The position numbers and the translations under genes were made by a program. This document shows, piece after piece, positions 6,477-64,000 of a stretch of DNA of 64,000 nucleotides. The notes beneath the pieces are model-generated. The model was not told the origin of the DNA, made no database searches, and saw nothing but the letters and a program-made list of their open reading frames with translations. This DNA is from Candidatus Iainarchaeum sp. GTDB lineage: Archaea; Iainarchaeota; Iainarchaeia; Iainarchaeales; VGJJ01. The stretch's first letter is position 1. Each line of letters starts with the position of its first letter. The stretch is from assembly GCA_016699555.1 (NCBI GenBank), contig CP064981.1, positions 27,456 through 91,455 on the forward strand. Direction: 5' to 3'.

Positions 6477-7187
6477 CGGTTCCTGTGGAGGTCGTCGCGG
6501 AAGGAGGCTCTGTCACATCGATGCTATGCAGTCCTTCTCCCAACGTACGCCATGCAGTCAGAACGCGTATTTTAATGGGGAGGTCTTCCTCGCCGAGCGT
6601 GGGGGTGAAAGCGATACCGGTAGAGGAGCAATCGTTCGCGGGAATCACCCAATCGACGGGCGCGGGCACCCATTCGGGGCGTGTCGGGAGTTCCATGGCC
6701 AATTGCAGTTGTTGGGGAGAAGAAGCCGTATTGCACCCCGAAGCGATGACCTCAACATCCTGCCCCACATAGCCGATTGGAGGATAGGAGAATTGAAAGG
6801 TCACCTGACCGTCATCCGGCGAAGGCATCCCAACGGGAATGAGCGCACGCGTGGTGAGATGGAAAGGCGCCATGACCTGCAATTCCACTTGCCCCGACTC
6901 ATCGACCATCGCAGGGGTTAACATGATGGTGCGCGATTCGCGAGGGGAGAGGAGGGGAATGACCTCCAAGGCTTGGCGTTGGCCGTCTTTCACATAGACG
7001 ATGGACACATCCCTGATGGCATGCACGGAATCATTGGACACCATCACATCATTCCCGCTCCCGCTCGGGGAAACACCGATCGTGAGGCCGGTATTGAAGA
7101 AGAGGAAATAGACCAATGCGAATCCGAACACCGCATAGATGGCGATCATGACACGATACACATGACTTCGGCGCGCGGAGAAATCCA
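6469..7187 (-). CDS. Hypothetical secreted/membrane-anchored protein
   Basis: ORF track gives 6469..7392. The internal ATG at 7187 (MDFSARRSHVYRVMIAIYAVFGFALVYFLFF, a signal anchor) avoids overlap with the GTPase gene and is the likelier start. Confidence 0.4.
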
Positions 7188-7315: not shown

Positions 7316-8071
7316 TCATTTACGTTTACTCTTTCCTTTCTGCCAGTCGTGCCAGAGCTGGATGGACATCGTCCGCGTATCCGGCAAGCCACCCTTCCTG
7401 AGGCGATTCATCTTCTCCGCGAGCTTCTCGAGGGCCTCTTCCGCGTTCATGGTTCCGATGTCGAAATCATACTGCTTCTTGAGCCAGTTTCCCCACAACG
7501 CGCTCTTGCGCAACCACCCCAATAGTTCGACGGCCGGGTTCTCGATGTCCTGCACTTGATTGGGGGATTTGGCGTTCACGAGCAAGAGCTGGAACTCATT
7601 GCGCTGGTCGTATGGAATGACGCCGGGCGTGTCGAACACGTACACGTCCTCTTTCAATTTGATCAAGGATTTCCCGCGCGTGAAACCGGCTTGCTTGGAA
7701 GTGGGAGCGGAGTGCCTTCCCGTCAATGCATTGATGACGGAAGACTTCCCCACATTCGGAAAACCCACCACGGCAATCTTTCCGCCCTGCGGGAGCTTTG
7801 AGAAGATGAGCGCGCGCAAGTGATTGATATTCTTTTTAGGCGCGCAGGAAATGGCAATCGTATAGAGATTCGGCGCGCGCGCATTCTCATAGTCCGCTTT
7901 GTTATCGACGAGATCGAGTTTGTTGAACACGAGAATAACAATTTTTCCATTGCGCAACAACTTTCTTTCCAGATCCACGTTCTGCATCATATCCGCAAAG
8001 CGTGCATCCACTACTTCTAAGACGACATCTGCTTCGTCCATGGCGAGAAAGGCATGCTTGAAGAGCGACAT
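7316..8071 (-). CDS. Circularly permuted GTPase (YlqF/RbgA-like, G4 before G1)
   Basis: NKLDL (G4) precedes GFPNVGKSSVINAL (G1) and DTPG (G3). Confidence 0.7.
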   Translation of the reverse strand: MSLFKHAFLAMDEADVVLEVVDARFADMMQNVDLERKLLRNGKIVILVFNKLDLVDNKADYENARAPNLYTIAISCAPKKNINHLRALIFSKLPQGGKIAVVGFPNVGKSSVINALTGRHSAPTSKQAGFTRGKSLIKLKEDVYVFDTPGVIPYDQRNEFQLLLVNAKSPNQVQDIENPAVELLGWLRKSALWGNWLKKQYDFDIGTMNAEEALEKLAEKMNRLRKGGLPDTRTMSIQLWHDWQKGKSKRK

Positions 8072-8155: not shown

Positions 8156-9100
8156 TTACTTCCTAGTCCCCATCCTCTTCTTTATCCCTTCAATTATTTG
8201 CCGGATACGCTCACGCGTCAATGGAGCCGTATTCGTCCGCCGCGCAAGGATTTCAGCAATATCGACATTCGAATTCCCATTTAGCTTTTCCTTTAGGATA
8301 ATCCTCTCACGTGGCGTAAGCCAACGCGGCAATTGCATTGAGGTTGCAAGAGAGACAACCGCTGCAGGCCTTGCTACGGCCTCGTCGTTTAGGAGTGAAA
8401 CATCAGAAGGCGCATCCTTGTTCGTACGCTTGCGGCGATTTTCGTGCCTCAATGCATCCATCCCTAGATATCTAGCACATTTATAGAGATGGCTACTGAT
8501 TTGACTATATTTCGGATCGAATCTCATCATATGTTCTACGAGCCGGGGCAAGATTTCATTAAATATTTCTTCGCGTTTTGTATGCGATCTGATTTTCACT
8601 TTTCGGGATAGCGCACTCATCACAAGATTGCGATTTGCCGAGATGAATTGAATGGCTGCAGCCTCTGAAGCGAAGTAGCCGGAATGGAACTGTTTGGGTT
8701 TCCCATAAACCGGACAAATACCCTTCGTGGACAACCACGCACTTAGACGATTAAATTTATCCCGTGCGAATTTTTCACGCAGTGCTGCCATAAACTCCTT
8801 CCGTGCCGCAGCATAATCCCTAAAATTACGCGCAGCATCGAGTCGAGCGCGAAATCGTTCCAAAATTTTTAATCCCTCGGACCGTATGTGCATTGTATTT
8901 TGCCGTCGTGCAGCTGCTGCCTTTCTCGCCTTGACCCATTCCTTTTTCTCAGCGGACAACATGCTATTCTTTGCCCGAGCAGCCAAGGACAATATCCTAC
9001 GGCTTTCACCATACGAAAGTGTTCCGGATTCTTTTTGTTTCGCGTGATGCGATAATAGTCGTTGCATCCGCAAATAATGCGTTGAGTACGTGCGAGGCAT
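8156..9100 (-). CDS. Protein with sigma-70-like region 2 and region 4 HTH
   Basis: LVEHMMRFDPKYSQISSHLYKCARYLGMDALR resembles sigma region 2. LTPRERIILKEKL...NVDIAEIL...TRERIRQIIEGIKKRMG resembles region 4.2. Confidence 0.5.
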   Translation of the reverse strand: MPRTYSTHYLRMQRLLSHHAKQKESGTLSYGESRRILSLAARAKNSMLSAEKKEWVKARKAAAARRQNTMHIRSEGLKILERFRARLDAARNFRDYAAARKEFMAALREKFARDKFNRLSAWLSTKGICPVYGKPKQFHSGYFASEAAAIQFISANRNLVMSALSRKVKIRSHTKREEIFNEILPRLVEHMMRFDPKYSQISSHLYKCARYLGMDALRHENRRKRTNKDAPSDVSLLNDEAVARPAAVVSLATSMQLPRWLTPRERIILKEKLNGNSNVDIAEILARRTNTAPLTRERIRQIIEGIKKRMGTRK

Positions 9101-9116: not shown

Positions 9117-9467
9117 TCACAATAATTTCAATCTTCCCGTGTAGCGATGCAATTCATTTTCGGGAGCGGGGCCGATCCCTAAACAGGTTTTGCTCCCGGG
9201 CGCCACTTGGGTGTGTCCTGCATCCGTGATGAGCGCAGCGGGGAATTGCCTTTTCACTTGTTCGAACAATTCCAATAATTCTCTTTCGGTTTGCACTTTT
9301 ACGACGATCTTCTTCATCCCTTCTTCCAGCCAATCATCGCACCAATTCTTGTATTTGGATTGCTGGGCCTTGAGATAGGATGCTAGTGAGGCATGCGCCA
9401 CTTGAGCGGCCATCTTCCCTTTGTCCATTTGGAGATCCATCCGAACGACGAGGACTTGCTGGTACAT
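9117..9467 (-). CDS. pth2: Peptidyl-tRNA hydrolase, archaeal/eukaryotic PTH2 type
   Basis: KMAAQVAHASL...KIVVKV...ITDAGHTQVAPGSKTCLGIGPAP is the PTH2 signature. Confidence 0.8.
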   Translation of the reverse strand: MYQQVLVVRMDLQMDKGKMAAQVAHASLASYLKAQQSKYKNWCDDWLEEGMKKIVVKVQTERELLELFEQVKRQFPAALITDAGHTQVAPGSKTCLGIGPAPENELHRYTGRLKLL

Positions 9468-9552
9468 TCCAGAAAGATACCGGCTACGCGATTTAAACCT
9501 GCCCTTGAAAAAAATAAGCGACCGCCGAGAAGCGGCTGCAAAGAGAAAACGA

Positions 9553-9921
9553 TTATTGTGCCGATTCTTCGGAAGCCAATTGAGTGGCTTCGCTTCCGCC
9601 CAACGCTTTCAAGTCGCGCAAGTAAATGGTCTTCGTAATGCCATTCTCGTCCCACAAGGAAGAGAAGGACTTCCCTTCATTCATTTCCAACCAAATCTGT
9701 CGTTCGGTGGGGTGCTCATAACCCTTTAATGTATACAAGCGGTTGTAGGCCAACAACACGCGGTTGCCGTGGATGCCTTTCAGCGTAAAGAGGTGATTGC
9801 CATCGCGCAAGGGCTCAAAAGAGTCCCCTTCGGACACGGAAAGGGTCTTGGTGGAGCGGTTCTTCTTGAATGGAGGCTTCCAATCCTGGCTCATCTCTTG
9901 GATCTCAAAAACGGCTTGCAT
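9553..9921 (-). CDS. Hypothetical protein
   Basis: 122-aa ORF in coding-dense context; no domain. Confidence 0.35.
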   Translation of the reverse strand: MQAVFEIQEMSQDWKPPFKKNRSTKTLSVSEGDSFEPLRDGNHLFTLKGIHGNRVLLAYNRLYTLKGYEHPTERQIWLEMNEGKSFSSLWDENGITKTIYLRDLKALGGSEATQLASEESAQ

Positions 9922-10830: not shown

Positions 10831-11928
10831 ATGAACATGGGTATGGGCTTCGCGCAATTACTCGAAAAAGTGGTCTCCTTCATCAAGGACTCCCAGACCT
10901 CGCGCGAGAACGTGGGAAAAGCCATCCGCACGCTGAACGGAAAGCAATTGCAAGCGGTGGAAGCAGGGGAACAGCAGCTCGCGTATGGACTCCAAAAGCC
11001 CCTTCTGCAAGGCAAGTTCGCCGGAGTGGATTCCGGATTCATCTCACAGAGCTTCTATGCGCTGGACCTGATGATGATCCGTTCCGCGGGCGTGTGCTTC
11101 GAATATGAGAAAGGGAAGGTCGCGCGATCCAATTACTTCCCCAACTCCTTCGGACCGCCAGAGCCCATCGTGAATACGGACGGATTGGAGAAAGACGAAT
11201 TCCACAAATTCGTTTCCTTGACCCGATTGCAAGCCGAAGCGAACAATGCCGCTGCGCTCATCCGCGAGCACAAACCCCACGTGCTGTTCATCGATGGAAG
11301 CCTCATCCCCATGCCCGCGGACAAACCCGGGAGCGATTCCAAGCTCAAGAAAGAATACCATCAGACCATCGAAGCATTCCAATACCTCTACGCGGCCGCG
11401 CGCGAGCATGATTGTTTGCTCATCGGCACGATCGAAGACTCGCGCTCGGAGCGATTGAAGGAATTGCTCAAGGAAAAGATACTTCCCAAGCACGAATTGC
11501 AACTGGACGGGATGAACTCCCTGCAGGACGCATCCATCCTCGACAAGACGCTCAACGCAGGAGAGAGGAGCTTCGCTTTCACCTATGCAGCTGATACGCA
11601 CAAGCACGCTATCCTCATGGACTTCCCCTTCCCCATCGCATCCCAGTTGCACGCGTGCTATGTGAAGCCTTCGCAGTGGGATTACCCCATCCGCTGCGAA
11701 TTCTTTTCAAACGCAGAAAATCTCACTATCACCGCTACGCGCGTGGGGGAATACGTTTATGCGCAGTCGTCGCTGCACAAGGAATACGCATTCCCATCCG
11801 TTCTGATCGAAGCCGACCTGCGCGCGGGATTGAAGCCCGAAGAGATCGAGATGGTCTCGGACAAGATATTTTCCAAAGTGGGAAGGCACACCATCCACTT
11901 ACGACGAAGAGACCGCAGGCCCTTTTAG
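10831..11928 (+). CDS. nurA: NurA 5'-3' nuclease
   Basis: N-terminal GVDSGF and central HVLFIDGSLIP match NurA-domain catalytic aspartate motifs; length 365 aa. Confidence 0.7.
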   Translation: MNMGMGFAQLLEKVVSFIKDSQTSRENVGKAIRTLNGKQLQAVEAGEQQLAYGLQKPLLQGKFAGVDSGFISQSFYALDLMMIRSAGVCFEYEKGKVARSNYFPNSFGPPEPIVNTDGLEKDEFHKFVSLTRLQAEANNAAALIREHKPHVLFIDGSLIPMPADKPGSDSKLKKEYHQTIEAFQYLYAAAREHDCLLIGTIEDSRSERLKELLKEKILPKHELQLDGMNSLQDASILDKTLNAGERSFAFTYAADTHKHAILMDFPFPIASQLHACYVKPSQWDYPIRCEFFSNAENLTITATRVGEYVYAQSSLHKEYAFPSVLIEADLRAGLKPEEIEMVSDKIFSKVGRHTIHLRRRDRRPF

Positions 11929-11947
11929 CAAGAGCCAAAAAACCCGA

Positions 11948-12295
11948 TTACTTGCCCTCTGGCGGCAAATACGGGGATGCAGGAAGTGCATGAATCCAGT
12001 CTCGCCGGGGCCCTTCCCCATGGATCAATACACTCGCATTCTCTCCCAAACGGAAGTGCGCGAAATACGATGAACGAAAATCATCCAATTCCGGGTGCTC
12101 TTTGCTCCCCGCGAAATGAATCCAGGAAATCAATCCATCCGCGTACGTCGACTCATCCGCTCCACTTTCTACGTGCTTCCATGGATCGGGAATACCCACT
12201 TGACCATACGGATTCACAGACGTCTGCGCCGATACCAGCATGGCCAGCCCCAGCACTAGCAACAGCCCACTTGCCCAGACCACGAATCGTTTCAT
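11948..12295 (-). CDS. Small secreted protein (Sec signal peptide)
   Basis: MKRFVVWASGLLLVLGLAMLVSAQT signal peptide. Confidence 0.4.
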   Translation of the reverse strand: MKRFVVWASGLLLVLGLAMLVSAQTSVNPYGQVGIPDPWKHVESGADESTYADGLISWIHFAGSKEHPELDDFRSSYFAHFRLGENASVLIHGEGPRRDWIHALPASPYLPPEGK

Positions 12296-12389
12296 TCCAT
12301 CACCTTACAAGACCCACGCGACACGCGAAGCTTTTAAGCGAATCATATCCGCGCACGAAATATTTCGAACAAGTTTGACGATTGCCTAA

Positions 12390-13688
12390 TTATTCGACCG
12401 GAAGAAATTGTTGCATCCGGTCATAGGGGACATTATACTGCTGTACCGTCATGCACGCATATTTTTCCCCCAAATCGGGCATATTCTTATCCGCGACCAT
12501 ACAGTTTCCAATGAAACTGAAATCATCTGGAGAAAAATAAACCGTATACGGCGCAACCGCAATACGCGCACCCGGGTTGTCCGTATAACCCAAATACTCG
12601 TCTACACGCCCCGTCGCATAATAGGCACGCACCACGTCATCATAGTTGATTTTCCCCGTCTTCACGTAATTATCGGGCATCTGGTCGAAAGGACCATCAT
12701 ACCAGTTATTCGCCAGCACATTCTCGCCTTTCGCGCCCACCAAGAGTTTGCGCTTATTCTCGACATCATGGAAGAAGACCAAATCCGTCCGATTGCCGCG
12801 GATGAGTTTTTTCTCGGGGAGATATTGGTGGAATTGTTCCGGGACAAACACATCCTCATCCAACACCCAATACACACGATTCGTCTTCTGATTATACAAC
12901 AGGAAAAAATTCAATCCACTCTCATCGAACGTCGTGCCGATATATTTTTCCTCTGGCAGGAGCCCGAATGAGTGTGGAGGCGCCAGCCCCACGTCATTGA
13001 GGATGAATTTCACCGTCTTGTTCTCCACGGTAACATCATACTCAAAATCCGAAATCTTTTTCACGAAAACACCATTGGCATCCGTGTACTCGGCACCGTT
13101 CCCAATCCTTTCACTGCCCAATTCCAACGCAGGATTCTCGTCATACACGATATAGCCCATCCCGAAATGACCCGTATCGCGATCCTTGGCGAACAAGGAA
13201 AAGGAACCCTTCACATTATACCCGTGCGCCGTAAAACGGAAATAGAAATAATTCTCGGTGGGATACACCACCACTCTGTCGGGGAGATTGGCAAAAATAT
13301 AATTCAATACCGTCCACGAATCAAAAAGATTCAAGTCCGAGTTAAGACCATCGATGTATTCGAAATTCGTGAGTAGTGACCCATTCGAAGAGCCCGCAAG
13401 CCCGAACGAATTGTTGGCAGGAGAAGACGCCACGGGGAATGAGGGAGAAGAAATGCTCGACAAATTAGATTGAGCACCGCCGGGTGGAGAAGCCGGCGAG
13501 TAGAAAAATATCATATAGCCAAACGCCACGATAATGAGCGCAATCAACACCCATTGATGCATCCCTCCTCCAACGCGCGCAAACGCGCGATCATCCACAC
13601 CAGCCAATCCTTTTTCCATTCCAATCACATCCACTACCGCGTATGCGGGTGCAACATTATTTAATGGCACTCCATGGCCCGGAGTCAC
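12390..13688 (-). CDS. Hypothetical secreted/membrane-anchored protein
   Basis: 432-aa ORF with an N-terminal hydrophobic anchor and a Ser/Asn-rich linker. Confidence 0.5.
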   Translation of the reverse strand: MTPGHGVPLNNVAPAYAVVDVIGMEKGLAGVDDRAFARVGGGMHQWVLIALIIVAFGYMIFFYSPASPPGGAQSNLSSISSPSFPVASSPANNSFGLAGSSNGSLLTNFEYIDGLNSDLNLFDSWTVLNYIFANLPDRVVVYPTENYFYFRFTAHGYNVKGSFSLFAKDRDTGHFGMGYIVYDENPALELGSERIGNGAEYTDANGVFVKKISDFEYDVTVENKTVKFILNDVGLAPPHSFGLLPEEKYIGTTFDESGLNFFLLYNQKTNRVYWVLDEDVFVPEQFHQYLPEKKLIRGNRTDLVFFHDVENKRKLLVGAKGENVLANNWYDGPFDQMPDNYVKTGKINYDDVVRAYYATGRVDEYLGYTDNPGARIAVAPYTVYFSPDDFSFIGNCMVADKNMPDLGEKYACMTVQQYNVPYDRMQQFLPVE

Positions 13689-14401
13689 AATCCAAGCGCA
13701 CGATAGATATCCGAAATCGCATCACGGTGACCGTTCCTCTCTAATGCATCAAAGAAAACAAGCACGCGTGCATCAGGAGTGTTACGTCGAATAGTACGAA
13801 GCAACGTGGGGTCCTTCCAAAATGCGCGCGCCGGCCCTGCAGAGCCGCCATTCGCACGCTTGCAAGCATCGAATAGCCGGGGGACTGCATCCAAGTAACC
13901 CGCTACTTCGCGCGGAGAAAGATCGGGGCTCAATTGTGTTGCCATTTCGGATAGCGTAACGACCGTCTTGGCAGAAATCTCAGGAAACCCGCGCAGCCTG
14001 CCTTTAGGATCTTGCGCATCGGGCTTCCCGTCCAGGGCCTCTACCCACTGCCGTGCCACGCTGCGGACAAATTCTTCGCGCTTAGCAGGAGGGAGGTGAT
14101 TGCCTAAAATAGCATGGTGCTTACCCCCAATCACGTCGACCAAATGCTCAGCCTGCAAATCCTTCACGGTGTATTTCCACAATTCATTCGCGTGCAAAGG
14201 CATTACACGCACCGCCGGGGGCTTACCATTCTTCGGAGGATGGGTGCGCTTCCAGGCTTCTCTGCCTCCAACCCCTAGCGCCGTCGCGACTGCCGCCACG
14301 AGAATCCATTTCTTGGTCCTGGAATTCCACACACGCTTCGTCAGTCGGCGCATGCGCACGAAGCGCGGCTTGCGGGGGGTAGGAGGGGCCATGCGACTCA
14401 C
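13685..14401 (-). CDS. Hypothetical membrane-anchored protein
   Basis: N-terminal basic stretch followed by WILVAAVATALGV; ATGA overlap with the upstream gene. Confidence 0.45.
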   Translation of the reverse strand: MSRMAPPTPRKPRFVRMRRLTKRVWNSRTKKWILVAAVATALGVGGREAWKRTHPPKNGKPPAVRVMPLHANELWKYTVKDLQAEHLVDVIGGKHHAILGNHLPPAKREEFVRSVARQWVEALDGKPDAQDPKGRLRGFPEISAKTVVTLSEMATQLSPDLSPREVAGYLDAVPRLFDACKRANGGSAGPARAFWKDPTLLRTIRRNTPDARVLVFFDALERNGHRDAISDIYRALGL

Positions 14402-14408
14402 AAGCTAT

Positions 14409-15848
14409 TCATGGATTAAAAACATACGTCGTAGGACCGTGTTCCGCTTCGGGACTCGTTGAGTGCTGCCAACCGGGTTCGGTGTACGAGGATGGGGGCA
14501 CCGACTTTCCGTTGCCGGAAAACCCTTGCACCGATTGGTGGATCCAGTCGTTAGGAACATAGTATGTGTCGTCGGGACCGCCATTCACGTGACTATTTCC
14601 CGTCCCAGGAGCGTAACGCGTGTGGTCGGGCGAACTGGGGTTGAAAATGTGAGCGGTGCCGGGACTAACATAATCCGTTGCATCCACGCGCAAACGACCG
14701 CCGGGATTCAATCCAACACCCGGATTTGGCCAAGTGCCTCCCCACTCGGTCGCGTGAAAGAATCCTGGAGGCACATAGGTGGTGTACTCTCCGTAATCTG
14801 AATTCGAGACATGAAACCAGCCCGGGGGCAAATAATTCGTTGCCGAGTCCTCGGGCTCCATCAATCCGCCTCCATTGCTGGAAGGAGGAGAAAGCGTCGC
14901 ATGGAAATAATCCCCCGGAAGATAATTGGTCGTGTTGGGGCCCAGCGCCTTATGTTCCCACCCGGGAGGATGCCATGTCGTAGCAAAGGGGCCAGCCGTG
15001 ATGTGATCCCACCCCGCTGGAGCATAACTGGATGCCAACGGTCCCGCAACCGATTTGTGCTCGTGCGGAGCATAACGCGTAGTGTCCGGACCATATTTGA
15101 TGTGAGTCGCATCCGTGAGACCAGGACCCCAAACATAGGTAGAATTCTGAGCCTGATCCGGGGACTCAAAAATGTGAAAGCCACCAGGTCCAATCAAATC
15201 CGTCTGGTCGGGGCCGGGTTCGCTACCATGGAAGCCGGTGCCGCCAAACCCTCCGCCGGGTGGAAGCCACATCGTCGTGAGTGCTTGGTGATACCAGTCG
15301 GGCCCGACATACACCGTCTGATGGGGCCCGGGAAAATTCTTGTGACTCCAGCCCGGAGGAAAATAGCGAGTGTAATCAGGACCCTGAATCGCTCCGTGCA
15401 CCATATCCGTACGGATGACACGCGTCTTTTCAGGACCCGAAGCCACGTGGACAAGCCACGTATAAGTCGTGTGATCGGGATAGCCAGGATTATAGATATG
15501 ATGAAATACACGCCCCGTGGTGGGAGGCAATTGACGCGTGGCTTCTGTGCCATCGAAGACGTGCAATGTCGTAGGATTCAAGCCCCCGGTGGTATGATCA
15601 ACCGTATTGAAAGGGCCCTGTCCACTCGAAGGAACAGGCTCTCTGCCCGAACCCGAAGGCGGACGCGCGGATTGCAGTTCAATCCCGGGATCAGCCTCCA
15701 AATGCGAATCAGCCATGGGCAACACCACAAGGCCAGTGGACATCGACAACACGGCATCACGAGGAATGGCAATCATCCCTAGCGCCAAAAAAAATAAGCC
15801 AACCACTACTACCGCATACACGATTACTCGCATGAAAAAAACCACCAA
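14409..15848 (-). CDS. Secreted protein made of about 12 tandem 24-aa repeats (GP[DN]xTxY-PPGW-H)
   Basis: N-terminal TM helix; repeated YxPPGWxH / GPDTTRYAP units visible by eye. Confidence 0.5.
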   Translation of the reverse strand: MVVFFMRVIVYAVVVVGLFFLALGMIAIPRDAVLSMSTGLVVLPMADSHLEADPGIELQSARPPSGSGREPVPSSGQGPFNTVDHTTGGLNPTTLHVFDGTEATRQLPPTTGRVFHHIYNPGYPDHTTYTWLVHVASGPEKTRVIRTDMVHGAIQGPDYTRYFPPGWSHKNFPGPHQTVYVGPDWYHQALTTMWLPPGGGFGGTGFHGSEPGPDQTDLIGPGGFHIFESPDQAQNSTYVWGPGLTDATHIKYGPDTTRYAPHEHKSVAGPLASSYAPAGWDHITAGPFATTWHPPGWEHKALGPNTTNYLPGDYFHATLSPPSSNGGGLMEPEDSATNYLPPGWFHVSNSDYGEYTTYVPPGFFHATEWGGTWPNPGVGLNPGGRLRVDATDYVSPGTAHIFNPSSPDHTRYAPGTGNSHVNGGPDDTYYVPNDWIHQSVQGFSGNGKSVPPSSYTEPGWQHSTSPEAEHGPTTYVFNP

Positions 15849-15987
15849 TCCCAGTGATACATCACCCCCGCACTCCTAAATATATAAGTCTTCGGCATAA
15901 TGCGCCAATAGAATAAGACAATTGTTGAATTATCCCCTACTGGCGCAAGGCCAAACCTAATATACGTCGGAAGCCGCAATCATCTGA

Positions 15988-16752
15988 ATGCCCAGGACCA
16001 TTCAAGAGATGCAAACAGAGTTGCAGAAATTGCTCAAGAAACGGGAGAACGAACACCCCTTCGTGCACCTCGCAGCGTTCATGGAAGAGACCGCGGAACT
16101 ATCGCAGGATTTGAGCCAACACCTCGCGGACAAATATCATGCCACTCCAGAAGAAAAAACACAAACCGAAGAACGAATAGGAGATGTGCTCGTGAGCGTA
16201 GCGGCGCTCGCCAATTATCTCGGAATGGACTTGGAATCCGCCTACGAAAAGAGCATCCGAAAAGTACGCGCACGCCATCATACGGAGTGGACGCTGAAGG
16301 ACGCGCTTGCATATCAGGCGGGAGAGAAACACTTCGTTTTTGACTCTCCCACGAATTGGCTGGAACAATTGAAGCTGGAATTCCAGAACATCCCCGTCCA
16401 CATCGATAACGACCTCCGCATATCCGAGAAGTTCCTCCCATGGCTGCAAGAAGGAAAGAAGAAAACCCTCTTCCGATTCGAAAAAAATGCCATTTGCGTC
16501 CCTTCAGCGCCGGAGTTGGTGCTATATGAGAGCAGCGCCGAGCCCTTGCTCACGCTGGGAACCATCGCGCTCACGGGATTCATCATCAAACCCTTCCGGG
16601 AGCTGCATGATGAGGATGCCCGCGCACAGGGATACAATTCCAAAATCGAATTCATCACCGCGATGAAAAACCTCTATGAGCCGCGCGGGTTGACGGATGA
16701 CTCGTTGATTTCCCTCTATCACATCCAGGGATTCAAGACCATGAACGGATGA
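15988..16752 (+). CDS. MazG-like NTP pyrophosphohydrolase fused to an ASCH/PUA-like domain
   Basis: EETAELSQ...EERIGDVLVSVAALANYLGMDLE is a MazG/HisE-like all-alpha NTP-PPase motif. The C-terminal half is ASCH-like (EGKKKTLFRF). Stop overlaps the herA start (ATGA). Confidence 0.55.
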   Translation: MPRTIQEMQTELQKLLKKRENEHPFVHLAAFMEETAELSQDLSQHLADKYHATPEEKTQTEERIGDVLVSVAALANYLGMDLESAYEKSIRKVRARHHTEWTLKDALAYQAGEKHFVFDSPTNWLEQLKLEFQNIPVHIDNDLRISEKFLPWLQEGKKKTLFRFEKNAICVPSAPELVLYESSAEPLLTLGTIALTGFIIKPFRELHDEDARAQGYNSKIEFITAMKNLYEPRGLTDDSLISLYHIQGFKTMNG

Positions 16753-18350
16753 ACGCCATCCAAACGCATAAAATGGTAGCAGGACGTCCATGGTGTATGG
16801 ATGACAAAGAAATAGGCACGGTCATTTCCTCCCTCGAAGGACCTTCTCCCACGGAAGTGGATTTCGTCGTCACGCAAGGAAAGGTGCACCGCGGGCAGTT
16901 CGTGGAAATCCCGTATGCGGATGGGAAGATGATGTGTCTCGTGGAGAACGTCATCAAGACCAACAAATACTTCGAGCGCGCCGATAGCGTCAAGGAATTC
17001 GAGTCGCAAGGGACGAAACTCTTCGAACAGTTCCCCGTGCACGAGTGGGAATACTTGCTTGCGAAGACGAAACCGCTAGGATTGTTCGTGGAAGGAGAAA
17101 AACAAATACGCCGGCCCTCATTCCCACCCTCGCCCGGAAGCAAAGTGTTCAATGCGCATCCCGAGAACATTGTGCAATTCCTCGGACTGGATACCGAAAA
17201 AGGGATGCAACTCGGAAAGCTGGAATTCCATCCCGTGGAAGTGAAAGTGAATCTTTCAAAGCTATTGCAGAAACACCTCGCGATTTTGGCGATGAGCGGA
17301 AGCGGAAAATCCTATACGGTCTCTTGCCTCCTCGAAGAGCTCCTCAATCGCAAGGCCGAGCATGGGCGCGTGGGAATAGTGGCATTCGATGTGCACGGGG
17401 AATACACCAATTTTGCAGAACCCCCATCGGATGCAAAATATACTGATTTCTCCACGCGCACTCGACTCATCCGCGCACGCGATTTGCGGATTGGCGTACC
17501 CAAAATATCCGCAACCCTATTCGGGAGCCTCATGCCCAATGCCTCTCCCGCACAGAAACGCGAACTCGGGAAGATCATCGAGGAGCTGCAGAAGAAGATG
17601 AAAGAAGGATATGGCGCCTACGATTTGAACGACATCCGTGCGGCGCTTCTCGCAGAGCTCAATGAAAAAGAAGGAAAGAATACGACCATCCAGACGCTCT
17701 TGGGATGGTTGTATGAATTAGAAGAGCTGCACCTCTTTGGCAAAGCCGATAATCCATCGCTATTGGACTTGGTGCAGCCCGGGATACTGACCGTGGTGGA
17801 CCTCAACGATGTGCTGTCGCAGAAAAAAAAGCAAGTCATCGTCTCTTACTTGGCCAATCGCCTCTTCAATGAGCGACGCAGCAAGACGATCCCTCTAACG
17901 GTCATCGTGTTGGAAGAAGCCCACAATTTCATCCCCCAAAACACCCCCAAAGAGGGAAGCATGAGCAAGTATGTTTTCCGAACGATTGCGCGCGAGGGAA
18001 GAAAATTCGGCGTGAGCTTGTGCTTGATATCGCAGCGACCGGTGCAGTTGGATACTACTACACTCTCTCAGTGCAATACCCAATTGCTCTTGCGCATTAC
18101 CAATCCCTATGACATCAAGCACATCGGAGAGAGCTCAGAAGGACTCTCGGGAGAAAGCGCATCCATGTTGAATTCCCTGCGCGTGGGAGAAGGAGTATTA
18201 GTGGGAGAAGCCGTGAACGCGCCCGTGTTCTTCAAAGTACGCGAACGCAAATCACAACCCAGCAAGCACGAGGGAACGCTCGAGAAGGCGGGGATCGATT
18301 ATGAAGTCAACGCGGCGAAGAACAGGAAAGAGACGGAAGACTTGCTGTAG
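16749..18350 (+). CDS. herA: HerA DNA helicase/translocase
   Basis: Walker A AILAMSGSGKSYTV, Walker B VIVLEEAHNF, FtsK/HerA-type C-terminal region; 533 aa. Confidence 0.85.
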   Translation: MNAIQTHKMVAGRPWCMDDKEIGTVISSLEGPSPTEVDFVVTQGKVHRGQFVEIPYADGKMMCLVENVIKTNKYFERADSVKEFESQGTKLFEQFPVHEWEYLLAKTKPLGLFVEGEKQIRRPSFPPSPGSKVFNAHPENIVQFLGLDTEKGMQLGKLEFHPVEVKVNLSKLLQKHLAILAMSGSGKSYTVSCLLEELLNRKAEHGRVGIVAFDVHGEYTNFAEPPSDAKYTDFSTRTRLIRARDLRIGVPKISATLFGSLMPNASPAQKRELGKIIEELQKKMKEGYGAYDLNDIRAALLAELNEKEGKNTTIQTLLGWLYELEELHLFGKADNPSLLDLVQPGILTVVDLNDVLSQKKKQVIVSYLANRLFNERRSKTIPLTVIVLEEAHNFIPQNTPKEGSMSKYVFRTIAREGRKFGVSLCLISQRPVQLDTTTLSQCNTQLLLRITNPYDIKHIGESSEGLSGESASMLNSLRVGEGVLVGEAVNAPVFFKVRERKSQPSKHEGTLEKAGIDYEVNAAKNRKETEDLL

Positions 18351-18352
18351 TA

Positions 18353-18901
18353 TCATTTTTTCAAAAAATAATCCAAAATCAATTCCATCCCCGCTTTGCG
18401 TGTCTTTTCTTTCAGCGAGAAAATGGACTCGCTCGCTTCAAGGGCAAATCTCTTCTGCGCGATGACCTCTCCTGTGTCCATGCCTTCATCGATCACATGC
18501 AGCGTGGGACCGCTCTCAAGGGGTTTGGCCTGCAGGATATCACGATAGACCTTTTCGGGCAAGCCCTTGAATTGGGGCAAGAGCGAGGGATGGAGATTCA
18601 GCACCTTGCGCGGGAACACATCCAAGACGCGATTGGAAAAAAGCAAATCGAATTCCCATGCGATCACCACATCCACGCGGTGGCCCATCCACTCCTCCAA
18701 CAGGGCAAACTCAAACGCCTCGTGGGACGGGAAATCTTCTCTTCGGAGCATGCGCACCGGGAACTGATCCGAACGCATATGGCCGCGATTGCATATCACT
18801 TGGACCAATTCCACATCGGGAAGGGGATTGTTCCACCATTGCGCGAGCCAGAAACCCAGCTCGGGAGAAGAAGTGATGACGGCTACGCGGGTCTGGACCA
18901 T
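18353..18901 (-). CDS. purN: Phosphoribosylglycinamide formyltransferase (formyl-transferase domain)
   Basis: NLHPSLLPQFKG and HVIDEGMDTGEVIAQ motifs. Confidence 0.65.
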   Translation of the reverse strand: MVQTRVAVITSSPELGFWLAQWWNNPLPDVELVQVICNRGHMRSDQFPVRMLRREDFPSHEAFEFALLEEWMGHRVDVVIAWEFDLLFSNRVLDVFPRKVLNLHPSLLPQFKGLPEKVYRDILQAKPLESGPTLHVIDEGMDTGEVIAQKRFALEASESIFSLKEKTRKAGMELILDYFLKK

Positions 18902-19007
18902 AACTATTACTCATCCCCCAGAACTAAAACCCCATGGTTCCAACGCCCTAGCAATGGCGGTTTGGGGTTGGAATAGGGATAAGCTTGCACAAAACCGCGT
19001 GTAGTGC

Positions 19008-20297
19008 ATGCATCCCAATGCGTATAGTTTAGTTCATGCAGCGGCAGCCACCGATAAGCCTGCCATTCATGTGGTCTTCTCCACTCCCCTGAAGAAAGTG
19101 ACGAAGCAGTACGCATTCTTCCCCTCACTCTACCTCCCCCGCACTTCCACTAATCTCTTCGAAACCATCCTCCAATCCTCCACATTCCCCAAGCACCAAT
19201 GCATCACGCACGCACAAAGCCTGCAAATCATTGCACGCGATTTCTTAGAGCTCAAAAAAATCGCATTTTCTATTTTTGCTCAAACCAATTATCTCCCATT
19301 ACTCGTTGAACCCGAAAGGCAATTCCTCCTCACGCAGAAGTGGAGGTATTTCCAGGCATTCGATGAACAATTCAAACCGCTCCCCTACTCTTTTACCGAT
19401 GCACAACTCCCGGGATTCGTCGAGCCCATCTATGCCACGCTCAAAAGCCTGCACGTGCATAACCCCAAAATGCAAGCGGAATGGAATGAACGCATCACGT
19501 GCGCGCACGAGCTATTGCACCCCATCACGGAGAAGCTACTCACGCTCAATGAGAAAGTGGAAATGAGTTTGGATAACCAACTCTTCTCCAAGCAAATGCC
19601 TCTCCCCATCGAGACGGCAACGCCCATCGAAACCATCCAATGGAGCGTGGCACAGCGCGAAGAAGCCAAGCAGCGCATCATCACCACGCCCCTTGATGCG
19701 GAAGGGAAATGCAGCTGCTGCATCCCGCGCTCTTTCATGGAAGCGCATGTGCTGCCCCACAGCATGGTAAAGGCAACCACCACGCAGGACGGGCTCTATA
19801 TCCACACGCAACACGCCCCCACCAGCCAGCAATTCCACGCCGCGCAACCCGGAAAAGAAAAAAGAGAGGCGCGCGCAAAAGAGTATGCGCTCAACCATTA
19901 TCCTCTTGGACCGCTCGTGCGCAATCAAACCATTACGCTTCCCCTGCAAGAAGCCATCCAAGAGATGCGCACGGGAAATGTGAAGATCGCATTTTCCCCC
20001 GCCGAGGCCAAGTGGAAGTGCAGGAATGAGACGCCTTTTGCACTGCAAGCCGCCCAACAATCCATGCACCAACGCGCACAACTGCATGCCCAACAACAAA
20101 ATGCATTGCTCCAACCCTACATGACGCAGTTCCAACTCTATTACACCCAATTCGCCGCCCAAGACCCGCGCGTGCAGCTCCATGTGCAGGCCGAAAAGCT
20201 CTCCCAGCAGGTGCAGGAAAACATGCCCTGGCACCTCATCCGCGGAGACACCAAGTGGCGAAGCAAATCCCTCACGAATAGCCTCCTCATCGGATAG
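19008..20297 (+). CDS. Hypothetical Gln-rich protein
   Basis: 429-aa ORF; no domain recognised. Confidence 0.4.
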   Translation: MHPNAYSLVHAAAATDKPAIHVVFSTPLKKVTKQYAFFPSLYLPRTSTNLFETILQSSTFPKHQCITHAQSLQIIARDFLELKKIAFSIFAQTNYLPLLVEPERQFLLTQKWRYFQAFDEQFKPLPYSFTDAQLPGFVEPIYATLKSLHVHNPKMQAEWNERITCAHELLHPITEKLLTLNEKVEMSLDNQLFSKQMPLPIETATPIETIQWSVAQREEAKQRIITTPLDAEGKCSCCIPRSFMEAHVLPHSMVKATTTQDGLYIHTQHAPTSQQFHAAQPGKEKREARAKEYALNHYPLGPLVRNQTITLPLQEAIQEMRTGNVKIAFSPAEAKWKCRNETPFALQAAQQSMHQRAQLHAQQQNALLQPYMTQFQLYYTQFAAQDPRVQLHVQAEKLSQQVQENMPWHLIRGDTKWRSKSLTNSLLIG

Positions 20298-20426
20298 GGA
20301 TCCAACCCCCAATAGAACCCCATAAAACCCGCTTTTGGCCTGTTTGAGAGCCACCCAAGATTGCCTTTATATAGGTTTCTTAGGAGTTTTTGGTTATTAT
20401 CCCCCGAAAAGGGAGCCTGAACCACT

Positions 20427-20636
20427 ATGCAACTTGAACTCACACGCTTCGAAAAGGCCCGCATCATCAGCGCACGCGCACTGCAATTGGCATACGGCGC
20501 TCCTGCATTGATCAAACCCGGGAAGATCATCTCTCCCTATGAGTTGGCCAAGCAAGAGTTTGAGGAAAAAGCAACACCATTATCAGTCATTCGCAGACTG
20601 CCAAATGGACAGAACATCCGCATTGAGGTGAATTAA
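20427..20636 (+). CDS. rpoK: DNA-directed RNA polymerase subunit K (Rpo6/RpoK)
   Basis: TRFEKARIISARALQLAYGAP matches the Rpb6/RpoK core. Confidence 0.75.
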   Translation: MQLELTRFEKARIISARALQLAYGAPALIKPGKIISPYELAKQEFEEKATPLSVIRRLPNGQNIRIEVN

Positions 20637-20900
20637 ATGGGTAAAGCCGTTCCAAAGGGAATCAAAACAAAAGCCGTCACGATTATGAACGAATTAGCCG
20701 AAGAAGTCTCGGACAATTTCGAAGCCAACAAGAAGACCATCAACTCGCTCCAACTCCCCATCGGAAAGTGGACCCGCAACGTGATGGCCGGATTCATGGC
20801 CCGCAAGATCAAGCAGAAAAAGCAAGCCGAAAAGCGCAAAGAAGAATTACGCGCCAAAGCCATCGCAAGAAGCAATCCGACGCCGATGAAAACGGAATAG
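20637..20900 (+). CDS. rps17e: 30S ribosomal protein S17e
   Basis: MGK...IKTKAV..MNEL...NFEANKK...RN.MAGFM pattern of eS17; abuts the rpoK stop. Confidence 0.6.
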   Translation: MGKAVPKGIKTKAVTIMNELAEEVSDNFEANKKTINSLQLPIGKWTRNVMAGFMARKIKQKKQAEKRKEELRAKAIARSNPTPMKTE

Positions 20901-21061
20901 TTTCATCGCGTCCGCTCTCGTTCTAGAATAATTGCACCATTCGCAATCACGCACACACTCACTCCAAGGACTATTCGGTTGTCAGCCCACCCATCTAACG
21001 GCGCTTCAATGATATGCACGCGCAGGCAGCGTTCGACAGGAGCAGGGCAAGAATCGAATGA

Positions 21062-23870: not shown

Positions 23871-24029
23871 TTAAGGACCCATGAACTGGCAGTCAGGGCA
23901 CTTATAGGAGCGGGCAGTGGTTCGGCAGTGCATGCAGCGGACGATCTTGTGCTTGCTACAATTGGGGCACTTGAACTCGATAAAGTCGGATCCGACTTGC
24001 ATATTACAGGAGGTACAGGTTTTCACCAT
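23871..24029 (-). CDS. Small Zn-ribbon protein (two CxxC pairs) commonly linked to aEF-1beta
   Basis: MVKTCTSCN...CPNCS...CMHC...CPDC. ORF track start 24125; the internal ATG at 24029 is preferred. Confidence 0.5.
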   Translation of the reverse strand: MVKTCTSCNMQVGSDFIEFKCPNCSKHKIVRCMHCRTTARSYKCPDCQFMGP

Positions 24030-24284: not shown

Positions 24285-24322
24285 TACAACATAATTATCA
24301 GATTAATAGGGCAGTAACATTG

Positions 24323-61323: not shown

Positions 61324-62610
61324 TCACTTGAAGAAATCCAATATGCGCTTCTGGTGCTGCACGCGATCCAAGAGCTTGGAGTTCTTCTTCCATACATCGA
61401 TGGGAATGGATAGTTTCGTCGCGAGATGCGCCAACGCCGCGTCCAACGAATCGAATTCTTTTTTCTCGGATTGCATGGCATTCCGCACGTTTTGGCGGCA
61501 TTGCCAGACGCCCATGGGTTGCTGATAGCCGGGACCGATTTCCCTGAATATGACGCACGCCGCCTGCTTGCGCTGCGCGTGGAGGTATTCCACTACCGCC
61601 AGGCGCGTGGCATAATATCCTCCCGCGACGTTCTCGGCATAATTCTTTCTTCCTTCGTAGAATTCATGATCGCAACTCATGTGCACACCTTTCATCTCTT
61701 TCGACCAAAAACCTCCGGGGCGATAGGCTTCCATGATATCGAAGCTCCACTCGCGCGGCAGCAAGAGGACGAAAAAGTGATTATCGAGATAATGCGATTC
61801 GAACACGTGGAATTGATCGATGCTCGGGAAGTCTTTGAGCGCTTCGATCTCCTGCTTGCCGATCGTATCGTCCACTGCCGTAATGGCCCAGCGCGTCGGC
61901 ACGAGTTTGCGATTATCTTTTTCTCCCAGCGTTCCGACGGATAAGAGCTTGTACAGATGATGCACCGGAATCTCGTCCGCGTACAACTCATTCATCGCCG
62001 TGGCCGCTTTCGCGTGGGTGTCGCTCACGAGGTAATCCACTTTCTGCGGAATCTTAGGATTCTCCTGCAACGCCAATGATTTCAGCGGCGCCTGCGGACC
62101 CATGGGAGGAGCGGCATCCGTGAAATGCAATTCCGCTTGGGGTTTTTTTGTTAATTCTATTGCGACATCCAACTTTTTCACGGACATCGCGATCTCTTGC
62201 ACTTGCTGCAATTCCTTTCCGGGATCCTTTGCGGCATGGATAGAAACGGGAATGTTGCTCCGCACGAGTTGGGTGCGATACCCCACGAGCGTCTCAAGAG
62301 GAGTACCGAACCAGCGCTCGGGATTATCCAAAAGGTCGGCGTCTTCCGAAAAATACGTGGGAGCCATCGGGGCCATCTTGACTTTGGGATACCCATAATG
62401 CGAAACGAAAACGGAAGGAGGAGAACTCCCAGCGAACGATTTTTCATTGATCTGTTGGAGGGACTGCTGCTTGGTCTGGTGCTTCTCGAGGATCCAGCAA
62501 ATGGGACCGCACCATAAACGACCACGACACTTCACACAGGTCTCGGGAGAAGGTTTGACATCGCTACTGGGCGCGCTCGTGGGAAGGGGATGCATAGCAT
62601 ATACCGCCAA
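61324..62610 (-). CDS. nreA: NreA-like archaeal DNA-repair protein with C-terminal PCNA-interacting (PIP) box
   Basis: N-terminal CxxC...C zinc-like cluster (CVKCRGRLWCGPIC); extreme C-terminus QKRILDFFK fits the Qxx[ILM]xx[FY][FY] PIP consensus; about 430 aa. Confidence 0.5.
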   Translation of the reverse strand: MAVYAMHPLPTSAPSSDVKPSPETCVKCRGRLWCGPICWILEKHQTKQQSLQQINEKSFAGSSPPSVFVSHYGYPKVKMAPMAPTYFSEDADLLDNPERWFGTPLETLVGYRTQLVRSNIPVSIHAAKDPGKELQQVQEIAMSVKKLDVAIELTKKPQAELHFTDAAPPMGPQAPLKSLALQENPKIPQKVDYLVSDTHAKAATAMNELYADEIPVHHLYKLLSVGTLGEKDNRKLVPTRWAITAVDDTIGKQEIEALKDFPSIDQFHVFESHYLDNHFFVLLLPREWSFDIMEAYRPGGFWSKEMKGVHMSCDHEFYEGRKNYAENVAGGYYATRLAVVEYLHAQRKQAACVIFREIGPGYQQPMGVWQCRQNVRNAMQSEKKEFDSLDAALAHLATKLSIPIDVWKKNSKLLDRVQHQKRILDFFK

Positions 62611-63291
62611 AAGCGTTATTTAATAGGAAATGCAACTAAGGGTGTGGAACCAAAAAAGAAACCAATCGGGATCGGCGCACTCTATCGCACAGCACTGCGC
62701 GAACTCCCGTCATATCGAGAGCGCAATGCACGCGTCATCCAAGCACTCGCTAATCCCACGCAAGCGACATCGCGCGCATTATGGAATAACTATGCCATCG
62801 TCACTTCTTACCGCGCCGCACGGAGATTCGTGCAACGCTACGAGATCCACCGCCAAAACTTCAAAGATCTATTCAGCGCGACGCTGGCGCGATCTATCGA
62901 ACTATTTCCTGTACTCGCACGACGCCATGCACGCGAACCGATTCAGCACGTATCAGGAGCGTATTTCCCTTATGTCGTGAATGCCCTAAAAGTGGAGGCA
63001 CGTAAATTGAAACCATATCGCCAGATGAAGGAGCGCGCCCCAAAGAAAGTAGGCGTGATTGAAGATCACGTGCACGGCGTCTTGGAAGAGATTCCATTAC
63101 GGAAGCGCCTGATGGTCGAAGCCTATTACCTACACGGGCTCAATACCACTGAAATCGGACGCCTGATGGACATGACGCCCGGCAGCGTACACACTACCCT
63201 CTGGAGGATTCGTAAAGAACTGCGCAAAAAAATGCGCGTCATTGAACCGCGTAAAACCCTCCGAAGGACCATCCGCGGAAGGCGCCGATAG
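62590..63291 (+). CDS. Second protein with sigma-70 region-4-like C-terminal HTH (ECF-like)
   Basis: LRKRLMVEAYYLHGLNTTEIGRLMDMTPGSVHTTLWRIRKELRKKM resembles sigma-70 region 4.2. Confidence 0.45.
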   Translation: MHSIYRQKRYLIGNATKGVEPKKKPIGIGALYRTALRELPSYRERNARVIQALANPTQATSRALWNNYAIVTSYRAARRFVQRYEIHRQNFKDLFSATLARSIELFPVLARRHAREPIQHVSGAYFPYVVNALKVEARKLKPYRQMKERAPKKVGVIEDHVHGVLEEIPLRKRLMVEAYYLHGLNTTEIGRLMDMTPGSVHTTLWRIRKELRKKMRVIEPRKTLRRTIRGRRR

Positions 63292-63335: not shown

Positions 63336-64000
63336 TATGATTGGCCAAAACGTCACGCTCACGCTGCCCGACGGCAAGCAATTGGAAGTAGCGCACGGCT
63401 CTACGGTACTTGATGCTATTGGGAAAATTGGAAAAAAACTCCAAGAAGCCGCCATTTCAGCCTCTCTCGACGGGAAAGAAGTCGATTTGACGCACAAAGT
63501 CGAAAAAGACGCCAAGCTCGTCGTGCACACATTCGCGAGCGCGGAAGGAAAAGAAACGTACTGGCATTCGACTTCGCACTTGATGGCCTACGCCATTACC
63601 GAGCTATACCCCGGCGCCCAATTCGGCGTCGGCCCCGCCATTGATGAAGGATTCTTCTACGATGTCGATTACGAACTGAACTTTACGCCTGAAGACTTGG
63701 TCAAAATCGAAAATAAGATGAAAGAACTCGCACAAAAGAATTTTCCTGTCATCCGACACGAATGGCCCAAGCAAAAGGCTATTGAATTCTTCAAGCAAAA
63801 TAAGCAACACTACAAAGCGGAATTGATCCAAGAGATCCCGGATGCGAGCGTTTCCGTCTATGAAGAGGGTGCGTTCAGCGACCTGTGCACCGGCCCCCAT
63901 GTCACGAGCACGGGAAAAATTGTCGCCATCAAACTCCTCAAGCTCGCAGGGGCGTATTGGAAAGGGGACGCCAAGAACAAGCAGCTCCAACGCATCTATG
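63336..64000 (+). CDS. thrS: Threonyl-tRNA synthetase, N-terminal part (runs off window)
   Basis: Manual translation MIGQNVTLTLPDGKQLEVAHGSTVLDAIGKI...WHSTSHLMAYAITELYPGAQFGVGPAIDEGFFYDVD is the TGS plus second-domain signature of ThrRS. Not in the ORF track because it is unterminated. Confidence 0.7.

Follow-up and report, generated by a model that had tools for sequence, protein, structure and literature searches.

Highly diverged sigma-70-superfamily proteins within housekeeping gene clusters of a Candidatus Iainarchaeum genome

A 64,000-nucleotide stretch of Candidatus Iainarchaeum contig CP064981.1 (the window; all positions below are counted from its first nucleotide) encodes two proteins that are well supported as highly diverged members of the sigma-70 superfamily in an archaeal genome, each with a predicted sigma-2 domain, a linker and a sigma-4 domain. 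Sigma-like protein 1 has 314 residues (GenBank QQR92663.1) and its whole coding sequence, stop codon included, occupies 8156..9100 on the minus strand. Sigma-like protein 2 has 215 residues, starts with GTG and is encoded at 62644..63291 on the plus strand; its sequence matches GenBank QQR92711.1 exactly. The homology of both proteins to the sigma-70 superfamily is convincing and of the extracytoplasmic function (ECF) type, whereas their membership by the curated rule of TIGR02937 is marginal. The finding is real and correctly read but not new. It is preceded by the GenBank names of both proteins (‘sigma-70 family RNA polymerase sigma factor’) and by a report of sigma-70 genes in DPANN archaea (Castelle et al., 2021). 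Judging from their sequences, the two proteins may be repurposed stand-alone DNA-binding regulators that act on archaeal promoters, a reading to which we assign a probability of about 0.45.

The original prediction placed sigma-70-like regions 2 and 4 in the open reading frame (ORF) at 8156..9100, and profile comparisons support this assignment. Residues 153-223 of protein 1 match Pfam PF04542 (Sigma70_r2) over model positions 2-71 of 71 (E = 4e-5; 23.8 bits, with a gathering score of 24). Residues 148-310 match NCBIfam TIGR02937 (sigma70-ECF) over model positions 2-161 of 165 (E = 3.2e-10; 39.9 bits, with a curated cutoff of 42.9). A profile of protein 1 and its relatives (family 1, five members) aligned with bacterial ECF sigmas over 145 columns from sigma-2 to sigma-4, with an hhalign probability of 98.9% and E = 1.4e-17, although this comparison is not fully independent because those ECF sigmas were recruited by the family profile itself. 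The sigma-2-like domain (8417..8665, minus strand; residues 146-228) contains four helices in the structural model and aligns with region 2 of RpoE and RpoD. The FDP motif that had been singled out as region-2-like is located at residues 194-196 and does align with the F/YDP of bacterial ECF region 2.

The sigma-4-like helix-turn-helix (HTH) domain of protein 1 (8162..8329, minus strand; residues 258-313) carries the recognition helix TRERIRQI. It is identical to residues 583-590 in region 4.2 of E. coli RpoD, which we take to be the segment that reads the -35 hexamer. In protein 1 this helix is preceded by a 4-residue insertion in the HTH turn. The earlier description of a ‘textbook’ region-4.2 HTH therefore holds for the recognition helix but not quite for the turn. 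Owing to the insertion, none of the Pfam Sigma70_r4 models matches protein 1. Support for its sigma-4 domain is weaker than for that of protein 2 and comes from the TIGR02937 alignment, which extends to residue 310, from TRERIRQI and from a partial match to the GerE HTH (PF00196; residues 261-286, model positions 3-28 of 57, E = 5e-4, 20.0 bits against a gathering score of 23.5). TRERIRQI is present in the closer members of family 1 and missing from the two most distant ones (P0007 and P0008), so it may not be ancestral. The unusual extended turn of protein 1 was also observed in P0012, a bacterial-type ECF-like protein of the representative library (RNTETPLTQKQVRSRL versus RRTNTAPLTRERIRQI). 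The resemblance is a hint that some subgroup of bacterial ECF sigmas carries this insertion too, and it could be a lead to the donor lineage.

The AlphaFold model of protein 1 was built from an alignment of three sequences and has a predicted local distance difference test score (pLDDT) of 74.8. It consists, in order, of a five-helix N-terminal domain (residues 7-125), a low-confidence loop, the four sigma-2-like helices (residues 146-228), a disordered linker and three sigma-4-like helices (residues 263-313). Structures of sigma-E region 2 recur among its weak Foldseek matches, with TM-scores of ~0.6 and root-mean-square deviations (rmsd) of 2.5-3.7 Å. The N-terminal extension (8726..9100, minus strand; residues 1-125; isoelectric point (pI) 11.4) forms helices at residues 7-25, 30-45, 49-89, 93-110 and 113-125 and has no Pfam, NCBIfam or PDB family match. 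Immediately N-terminal of sigma-2 lies a lineage-specific motif, GKPKQFHSGYFASE (8663..8704, minus strand; residues 133-146), which is the best-conserved stretch of family 1. Gly133, Lys136, Gln137, Phe138, Gly141, Phe143, Ala144 and Glu146 in this motif are invariant in all five members, which are 24-87% identical. The model is of poor confidence there (pLDDT <50 for residues 131-141).

The second protein was originally listed as 62590..63291 (plus strand), with an ECF-like region 4. This region is confirmed by Pfam PF08281 (Sigma70_r4_2), which protein 2 matches with 29.4 bits, exceeding the gathering score of 25.7; the start has moved, however, and a sigma-2-like domain is present as well. 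The protein is 215 residues long in every homolog and in QQR92711.1, with which it is identical, so the GTG at 62644 is taken as the true start and the start at 62590 as too long. TIGR02937 aligns with residues 74-215 (E = 6e-11; 42.2 bits, against the same cutoff). No PF04542 match was found in protein 2, and its sigma-2-like domain is indicated by the TIGR02937 alignment from residue 74 onwards and by Foldseek. With the AlphaFold model (pLDDT 73.6) as query, the top Foldseek matches are all full-length ECF sigmas, namely SigL, SigW, CnrH, AlgU, sigma-E, BldN and SigH, with probabilities of ~1.0 over 170-187 columns that span both domains. The sigma-2-like helical domain is located at 62764..63003 (plus strand; residues 59-138 in the 233-residue numbering), with model helices at residues 59-83, 85-115 and 121-138, and the sigma-4 domain at 63055..63237 (plus strand; residues 156-216 in the same numbering). 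The latter aligns without gaps with the solved sigma-4 domains of SigW (6jhe) and sigma-E (2h27) and superposes on solved sigma-4 domains with an rmsd of 1.2-1.4 Å and TM-scores of 0.74-0.83. Its recognition helix, GSVHTTLWR.RK, is invariant in the family formed by protein 2 and its relatives (family 2). Single-sequence phmmer searches of the PDB gave mitofusin (protein 1) and TAL-effector repeats (protein 2) as top matches, both of which were discarded as compositional or repeat artefacts.

Both proteins have an ECF-like layout, in which the models show two helical domains and a disordered linker, and Pfam gives no Sigma70_r3 or r1 matches. They are strongly basic (pI 11.0 for protein 1 and 11.2 for protein 2), a property that would fit nucleic-acid binding. 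The suggestion that they are paralogs is unsupported, at least for a close relationship. BLASTP and hhalign comparisons of protein and family 1 with protein and family 2 detected no similarity, and the idea was dropped on the strength of these direct and profile comparisons. The hidden Markov models of the two families found no additional copies among 470 ORFs of the window.

The core-binding signature of region 2.2 is degenerate in both families. In bacterial sigmas, the D..QE of region 2.2 makes the main contact to the β′ clamp helices. We aligned this region from E. coli RpoD and RpoE, five bacterial ECF sigmas and both archaeal families. D..QE is intact in RpoD, RpoE and three of the five ECF sigmas. 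The same position reads E..NE in protein 1 and Q..KD in protein 2. Elsewhere in family 1 it is R..DA, N..DE or S..EA, and in this family it is trailed by an invariant proline. The original prediction proposed a check for a cognate anti-sigma-like neighbour. No anti-sigma domain was detected among the neighbours of the two genes, which encode PTH2, a GTPase, a HEAT-repeat protein, a 122-residue protein without a Pfam match, Nre and threonyl-tRNA synthetase (ThrRS).

Both families are narrowly distributed. The family 1 profile, run against 1.84 billion representative proteins, had nine matches at E ≤ 0.001, of which four are family members of 311-322 residues and five are ordinary bacterial-type ECF sigmas with E values of 7e-7 to 4e-4. 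Scanning 185,579 GTDB species genomes added one family 1 locus, in an uncultured archaeon. Family 2 comprises three 90%-identity clusters besides the query’s own sequence. Repeat word-indexed protein searches returned three clusters per family and added no members, and scans of 2.9 million viral contigs and of JGI metagenome contigs were negative for both families. The PHROG family phrog_1740 (phage sigma factors) gave weak profile matches to protein 1 (E = 4.5e-5) and protein 2 (E = 1.3e-7).

The host is archaeal according to the Pfam matches of the genes flanking both ORFs and to the source record (Candidatus Iainarchaeum; Diapherotrites, DPANN), and the contig that encodes protein 1 is 1,048,949 bp (~1.05 Mb) long. 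Archaeal hallmark genes flank both ORFs and encode PTH2, NurA, HerA, a Rad50-type SMC ATPase, Hjc, Nre and the RFC small subunit. Further hallmark genes in the flanks encode an eRF1/Pelota-like protein, the archaeal CCA-adding enzyme, an Elp3-like radical SAM protein, a KaiC/RadA-like ATPase and a DnaG-type Toprim primase.

The immediate neighbours of the two sigma-like genes are conserved. Gene 1 is located between pth2 (9117..9467, minus strand), which encodes an archaeal/eukaryotic-type peptidyl-tRNA hydrolase (PF01981, E = 4e-42), and the gene of a GTPase that Pfam matches identify as MMR_HSR1/RsgA-type (7316..8071, minus strand), which follows directly downstream after a gap of 84 nt. In locus L002, whose sigma-like protein is 26% identical to protein 1, the order HerA..NurA..PTH2, sigma-like, GTPase..Hjc..Toprim is that of the window. 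PTH2, sigma-like and GTPase genes keep their order in L008 and L009, and the GTPase gene is found at the same position after the sigma-like gene in all three loci. The order is inverted in L003, where the sigma-like gene comes before that of PTH2, with the adjacency of the two genes intact. Gene 2 always lies between a divergent Nre gene and a downstream ThrRS gene, an order found in four loci (L004, L005, L006 and L010), with ThrRS domains at the matching position in L004 and L005. In the window, the gene of the archaeal Nre family protein (PF04894 and PF04895) spans 61324..62595 on the minus strand, with a likely ATG start at 62595. The start of thrS (63337..64000, plus strand), recognized from its translation, follows 45 nt downstream of gene 2 and the gene continues past the window end. 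Altogether, the conserved neighbourhoods recur in at least seven independent assemblies. It is well supported that both genes are vertically inherited, long-resident archaeal genes rather than contamination or a recent transfer.

The genes also have conserved archaeal-type promoter elements. A TATA element ~26-27 nt before the start codon is a hallmark of archaeal TATA promoters with leaderless mRNAs. A TATA-like TTTAAAT (9491..9497, minus strand) has its centre ~27 nt before the pth2 ATG; the element is conserved in L009, L008 and L002, where it reads TTTAAAT or TTTATAG. The pth2 stop codon is 16 nt upstream of sigma-like gene 1, a spacing that suggests that the two genes probably form one operon, and a GGATGG purine run precedes the start of gene 1. 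In the other cluster, the 48-bp intergenic region between the divergent Nre gene and gene 2 contains a TATA-like AT-rich core, GCGTTATTTAATAGGAAATGC (62613..62633). The sequence GCGTTATTTAATA, located ~26 nt from the start codons of both Nre and sigma-like gene 2, does not vary among four loci, although the sigma-like genes of these loci share just 58% identity. These elements are consistent with leaderless archaeal transcripts, and both genes seem to be integrated into the archaeal system. The TATA-like box at 62613-62633 is bracketed by an imperfect inverted repeat, GCGTT-N11-AATGC, which is perfect in L004 and L005 (GCGTT-N11-AACGC; consensus GCGTT-N11-AAYGC) and could be an operator. A consensus scan for sigma-70-type promoters near gene 1 found 8 sites versus 2.9 expected, an excess that we leave uninterpreted because AT-rich archaeal promoter regions mimic -10 boxes.

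A few observations were made upstream of pth2. In a consensus scan, a hairpin followed by a T-run (9521..9536, minus strand) was located immediately ahead of the pth2 promoter, where it would terminate the upstream transcription unit. This terminator-like hairpin separates pth2 from an ORF of 122 residues without a Pfam match (9553-9921, minus strand), and the distantly related L002 likewise has a 122-residue ORF at this place (6512-6880). A NurA..HerA..Rad50-type ATPase DNA-repair cluster (10831-23425) adjoins the operon of pth2 and sigma-like gene 1 and has the same relative order in L002.

The original prediction also raised the possibility of a transfer from bacteria. A bacterial origin is plausible, but the transfer was not recent. 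The nearest bacterial-type sigmas match the family profile only at the E values of 7e-7 to 4e-4 given above, and the synteny and the archaeal-type promoters are conserved across deep divergence. A bacterial origin must therefore be ancient, and matches this remote point to no particular donor.

Both genes are under purifying selection, since the ratio of nonsynonymous to synonymous substitution rates (dN/dS, ω) is below 1 in all comparisons, yet they evolve several times faster than adjacent genes. Between closest relatives, ω is 0.50 for sigma-like gene 1 (dN 0.071, dS 0.14), compared with 0.07 for the PTH2 gene and 0.02 for the GTPase gene, and 0.33 for sigma-like gene 2, compared with 0.05 for Nre and 0.07 for ThrRS. 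In an independent pair, L004 versus L005, ω is 0.30 for sigma-like gene 2 and 0.04 for its neighbours. Over the longer range from the window to L004 it is 0.17, again with 0.04 for the neighbours. Silent changes were counted at codons with an unchanged amino acid, comparing 8159-9100 (minus strand) with L009, 62644-63288 (plus strand) with L010, and L004 with L005. They are about three-fold rarer in the sigma-like genes than in adjacent genes, with 7% versus 24% (p = 1e-8) and 6% versus 21% (p = 3e-7) in the first two comparisons; the third gave 11% in the sigma-like gene versus 17% in its neighbours (p = 0.04). The nucleotide identity of gene 1 is mosaic, ranging from 83% to 96% across 150-nt windows. 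Candidate explanations for low silent divergence combined with high dN/dS are gene-specific recombination, sweeps or constraint on silent sites.

Combining these observations, we propose the following history and function. The genes were probably gained from bacteria long ago by an ancestor of this Iainarchaeia clade and later domesticated. They would now be transcribed from ordinary archaeal TATA-box promoters within housekeeping gene clusters. Their role in recruiting a polymerase for initiation has most likely been lost, considering the archaeal transcription apparatus, the degenerate region 2.2 signature and the lack of an anti-sigma partner. As stand-alone, sequence-specific regulators, the proteins would instead repress or activate transcription, with the conserved sigma-4 recognition helix binding to duplex DNA in or close to TBP/TFB promoters, possibly those of their own genes. 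We favour a regulator because the known element that is conserved is the sigma-4 recognition helix, the core-binding signature is lost, and a bacterial polymerase or an anti-sigma factor is neither expected nor seen in the window.

Several points weigh against this proposal. Both proteins score slightly below the curated TIGR02937 cutoff despite near-full coverage of the model. The model of protein 1 is only moderately confident, and a Foldseek search with the whole model against PDB and BFVD gave no significant match. Constraint is comparatively weak, as dN/dS of the sigma-like genes is 5-20 times that of neighbouring genes. The sole candidate operator, GCGTT-N11-AAYGC, occurs once in the window and likewise in 36 of 100 shuffles, which is indistinguishable from chance. 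Finally, a complete sigma-2 domain is kept under selection, which is superfluous for a simple HTH regulator and hints at a second partner, either a single-stranded nucleic acid or a polymerase surface.

Two alternatives would give sigma-2 such a partner. Bacterial sigma-2 binds single-stranded nucleic acid with flipped-out bases, and the proteins could be translation-linked binders of tRNA or rRNA that use sigma-2 and their basic extensions and act with Pth2 and the GTPase, or with ThrRS. This role is suggested by the tRNA- or ribosome-related neighbours (pth2, the MMR_HSR1/RsgA-type GTPase gene and thrS), by the adjacency to pth2 that survives the order inversion in L003, and by the pI of ~11 together with the basic character of the N-terminal domain of protein 1 and of the C-terminal tail of protein 2. 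It is rather unlikely, as the neighbours are generic housekeeping genes whose adjacency may be incidental in a 1-Mb genome, the best-conserved known element is a duplex-DNA recognition helix, and we know of no precedent for RNA-binding proteins of the sigma-70 family. The other alternative is a true initiation or specificity factor for the archaeal RNA polymerase, in which the sigma-2-like domain would dock on the Rpo1 clamp coiled-coil and the protein would steer the enzyme to a distinct class of promoters, either together with TFB/TFE or in their place. Bacterial and archaeal polymerases have homologous clamp coiled-coils, that of Rpo1 being the structural counterpart of the β′ clamp helices. 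The full layout of sigma-2, linker and sigma-4 is under purifying selection in two unrelated families, and the invariant lineage-specific motif adjoining sigma-2 could be a new interface. However, region 2.2 has not conserved the residues with which bacterial sigmas bind the clamp helices, the promoters of both genes themselves resemble ordinary TATA promoters and, to our knowledge, sigma-4 would find no flap-tip helix of the bacterial type on the archaeal polymerase. We consider such a factor unlikely, although the possibility was left open by Castelle et al. (PMC8204110). The version in which the proteins are working sigma-like specificity factors, with GKPKQFHSGYFASE or a remodelled region 2.2 docking on the Rpo1 clamp and TRERIRQI reading a -35-like element, is decidedly improbable.

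The remaining explanations question whether the proteins are functional, sigma-like or resident at all. If the proteins were relics of an old transfer that are decaying and by now do little or nothing, this would account for the dN/dS of 0.3-0.5 in close comparisons, the degenerate canonical motifs, the scores short of curated family cutoffs and the very narrow distribution. Such decay is quite improbable given that no relative, even at 24% identity, has a broken reading frame, that gene position and length are conserved, that the long-range ω is 0.17 and that each family has invariant motifs. Moreover, streamlined ~1-Mb genomes tend to shed useless genes. Ordinary HTH regulators of the LuxR/GerE or another type, which mimic region 4 and have no real sigma-2, were considered because of the partial GerE match of protein 1, its weak PDB sequence matches to EsrB and RhlR and the failure of the Pfam Sigma70_r4 models to match it. 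This explanation is largely refuted and highly improbable. GerE stays below its gathering score and covers less than half of its model, whereas protein 1 has a full-length Sigma70_r2 match, TIGR02937 spans both domains in both proteins, hhalign aligns family 1 with ECF sigmas from sigma-2 to sigma-4, and the model of protein 2 matches full-length ECF sigmas. The best matches are thus to sigma-70/ECF models over both domains and not, as the original prediction had allowed for, to LuxR- or TrmB-type regulators without region 2. Bacterial contamination, mis-binning, recent horizontal transfer or a mobile element might be suspected from the base composition of gene 1 (GC 0.47; GC at third codon positions 0.46 versus 0.59-0.71 in its neighbours) and from the weak matches of both proteins to a phage sigma-factor family. 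An origin of this kind is extremely improbable, since archaeal housekeeping genes lie on both sides in a 1.05-Mb contig, the same neighbourhoods are found in independent assemblies, there is no close bacterial or viral homolog, and the promoter elements are archaeal in type.

Elsewhere in the window, a low-GC island (~23900-34600; 33-38% GC versus 50-57% elsewhere) begins right after tRNA-Arg(TCG) (24168-24243). It encodes Cas1 (26579-27763, minus strand; E = 4e-63), an OLD-like TOPRIM protein (33381-34508, minus strand), an 868-residue ORF with a C-terminal Cro/C1-type HTH (29764-32370) and several ORFs without a Pfam match. No CRISPR array was found near Cas1. The island has the appearance of an integrated element that is mobile or serves defence; with its solo Cas1, it may be casposon-like. 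A giant ORF (54024-61214, minus strand; 2396 residues) presumably encodes a surface protein. Its product is hydrophobic in an N-terminal segment and coiled-coil-like in a C-terminal region, and it also contains a poly-Gly/Ser stretch and long degenerate repeats in which Asn, Ser, Thr and Gly abound.

Reviews of archaeal transcription describe initiation by TBP, TFB and TFE, for which a sigma factor is not needed. DPANN genomes encode these three factors, and sigma-70 genes (fam00359) were nevertheless found in DPANN genomes, especially in Woesearchaeota, on archaeal scaffolds (Castelle et al., 2021; PMC8204110). Mis-binning was excluded in that study, no anti-sigma factors were found and the mechanism was called unclear. 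Where initiation relies on TBP, TFB and TFE, one must ask of any retained sigma-70-family protein what a bacterial module for promoter recognition is doing next to an archaeal polymerase. This question was raised for DPANN in 2021, and the literature that we searched holds no answer to it and no paper that gives a function to archaeal sigma homologs. The locus described here shows that genes of this kind, passed on vertically, can have resided for long in housekeeping operons with TATA promoters, and that they can evolve fast. They have lost the canonical core-binding signature and kept the sigma-4 recognition helix, which makes them reasonable candidates for a test of DNA versus polymerase binding. 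Binding to the archaeal polymerase would make them a striking cross-domain hybrid; ordinary DNA-binding regulators would be an example of domain repurposing, of modest general interest.

Compared with known systems, the two proteins resemble in setting the DPANN sigma-70-like genes reported earlier (PMC8204110). They share with these an archaeal DPANN scaffold, the lack of an anti-sigma factor and the database label. The emphasis of that report was on Woesearchaeota; the two Iainarchaeum families are very small and not detectably similar to each other. Bacterial group 4 (ECF) sigmas such as E. coli sigma-E (RpoE), B. subtilis SigW and M. tuberculosis SigL and SigH are likewise built from sigma-2, a linker and sigma-4 and lack region 3; at ~165-190 residues, the sigma-like part of the archaeal proteins is of similar size, and the F/YDP of region 2 is present. 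Unlike ECF sigmas, the archaeal proteins occur in a host with TBP/TFB-type transcription, their D..QE is degenerate, and the anti-sigma that typically, if not universally, accompanies such sigmas is not co-encoded. Their genes reside in housekeeping operons behind TATA-like promoters and not behind an autoregulated ECF promoter. Protein 1 differs further by its 125-residue N-terminal extension, its unique motif and the insertion in the HTH turn, and protein 2 by a loop insertion in region 2 and a basic C-terminal tail. With the primary (group 1) sigma RpoD of E. coli, protein 1 shares the TRERIRQI segment, but it lacks regions 1.1 and 3 and the non-conserved region, and its helix follows the 4-residue insertion. 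Phage sigma factors (phrog_1740) resemble the two proteins weakly, over sigma-2 to sigma-4 or the sigma-4 part, and differ from them in that the archaeal genes have a chromosomal housekeeping context. LuxR/GerE regulators and archaeal HTH proteins that resemble sigma region 4, such as Tfx (PMC5413776), have no sigma-2 domain, but their tetrahelical HTH is akin to sigma-4. They regulate by binding DNA on their own, and this is the functional analogy that we prefer for the two Iainarchaeum proteins.

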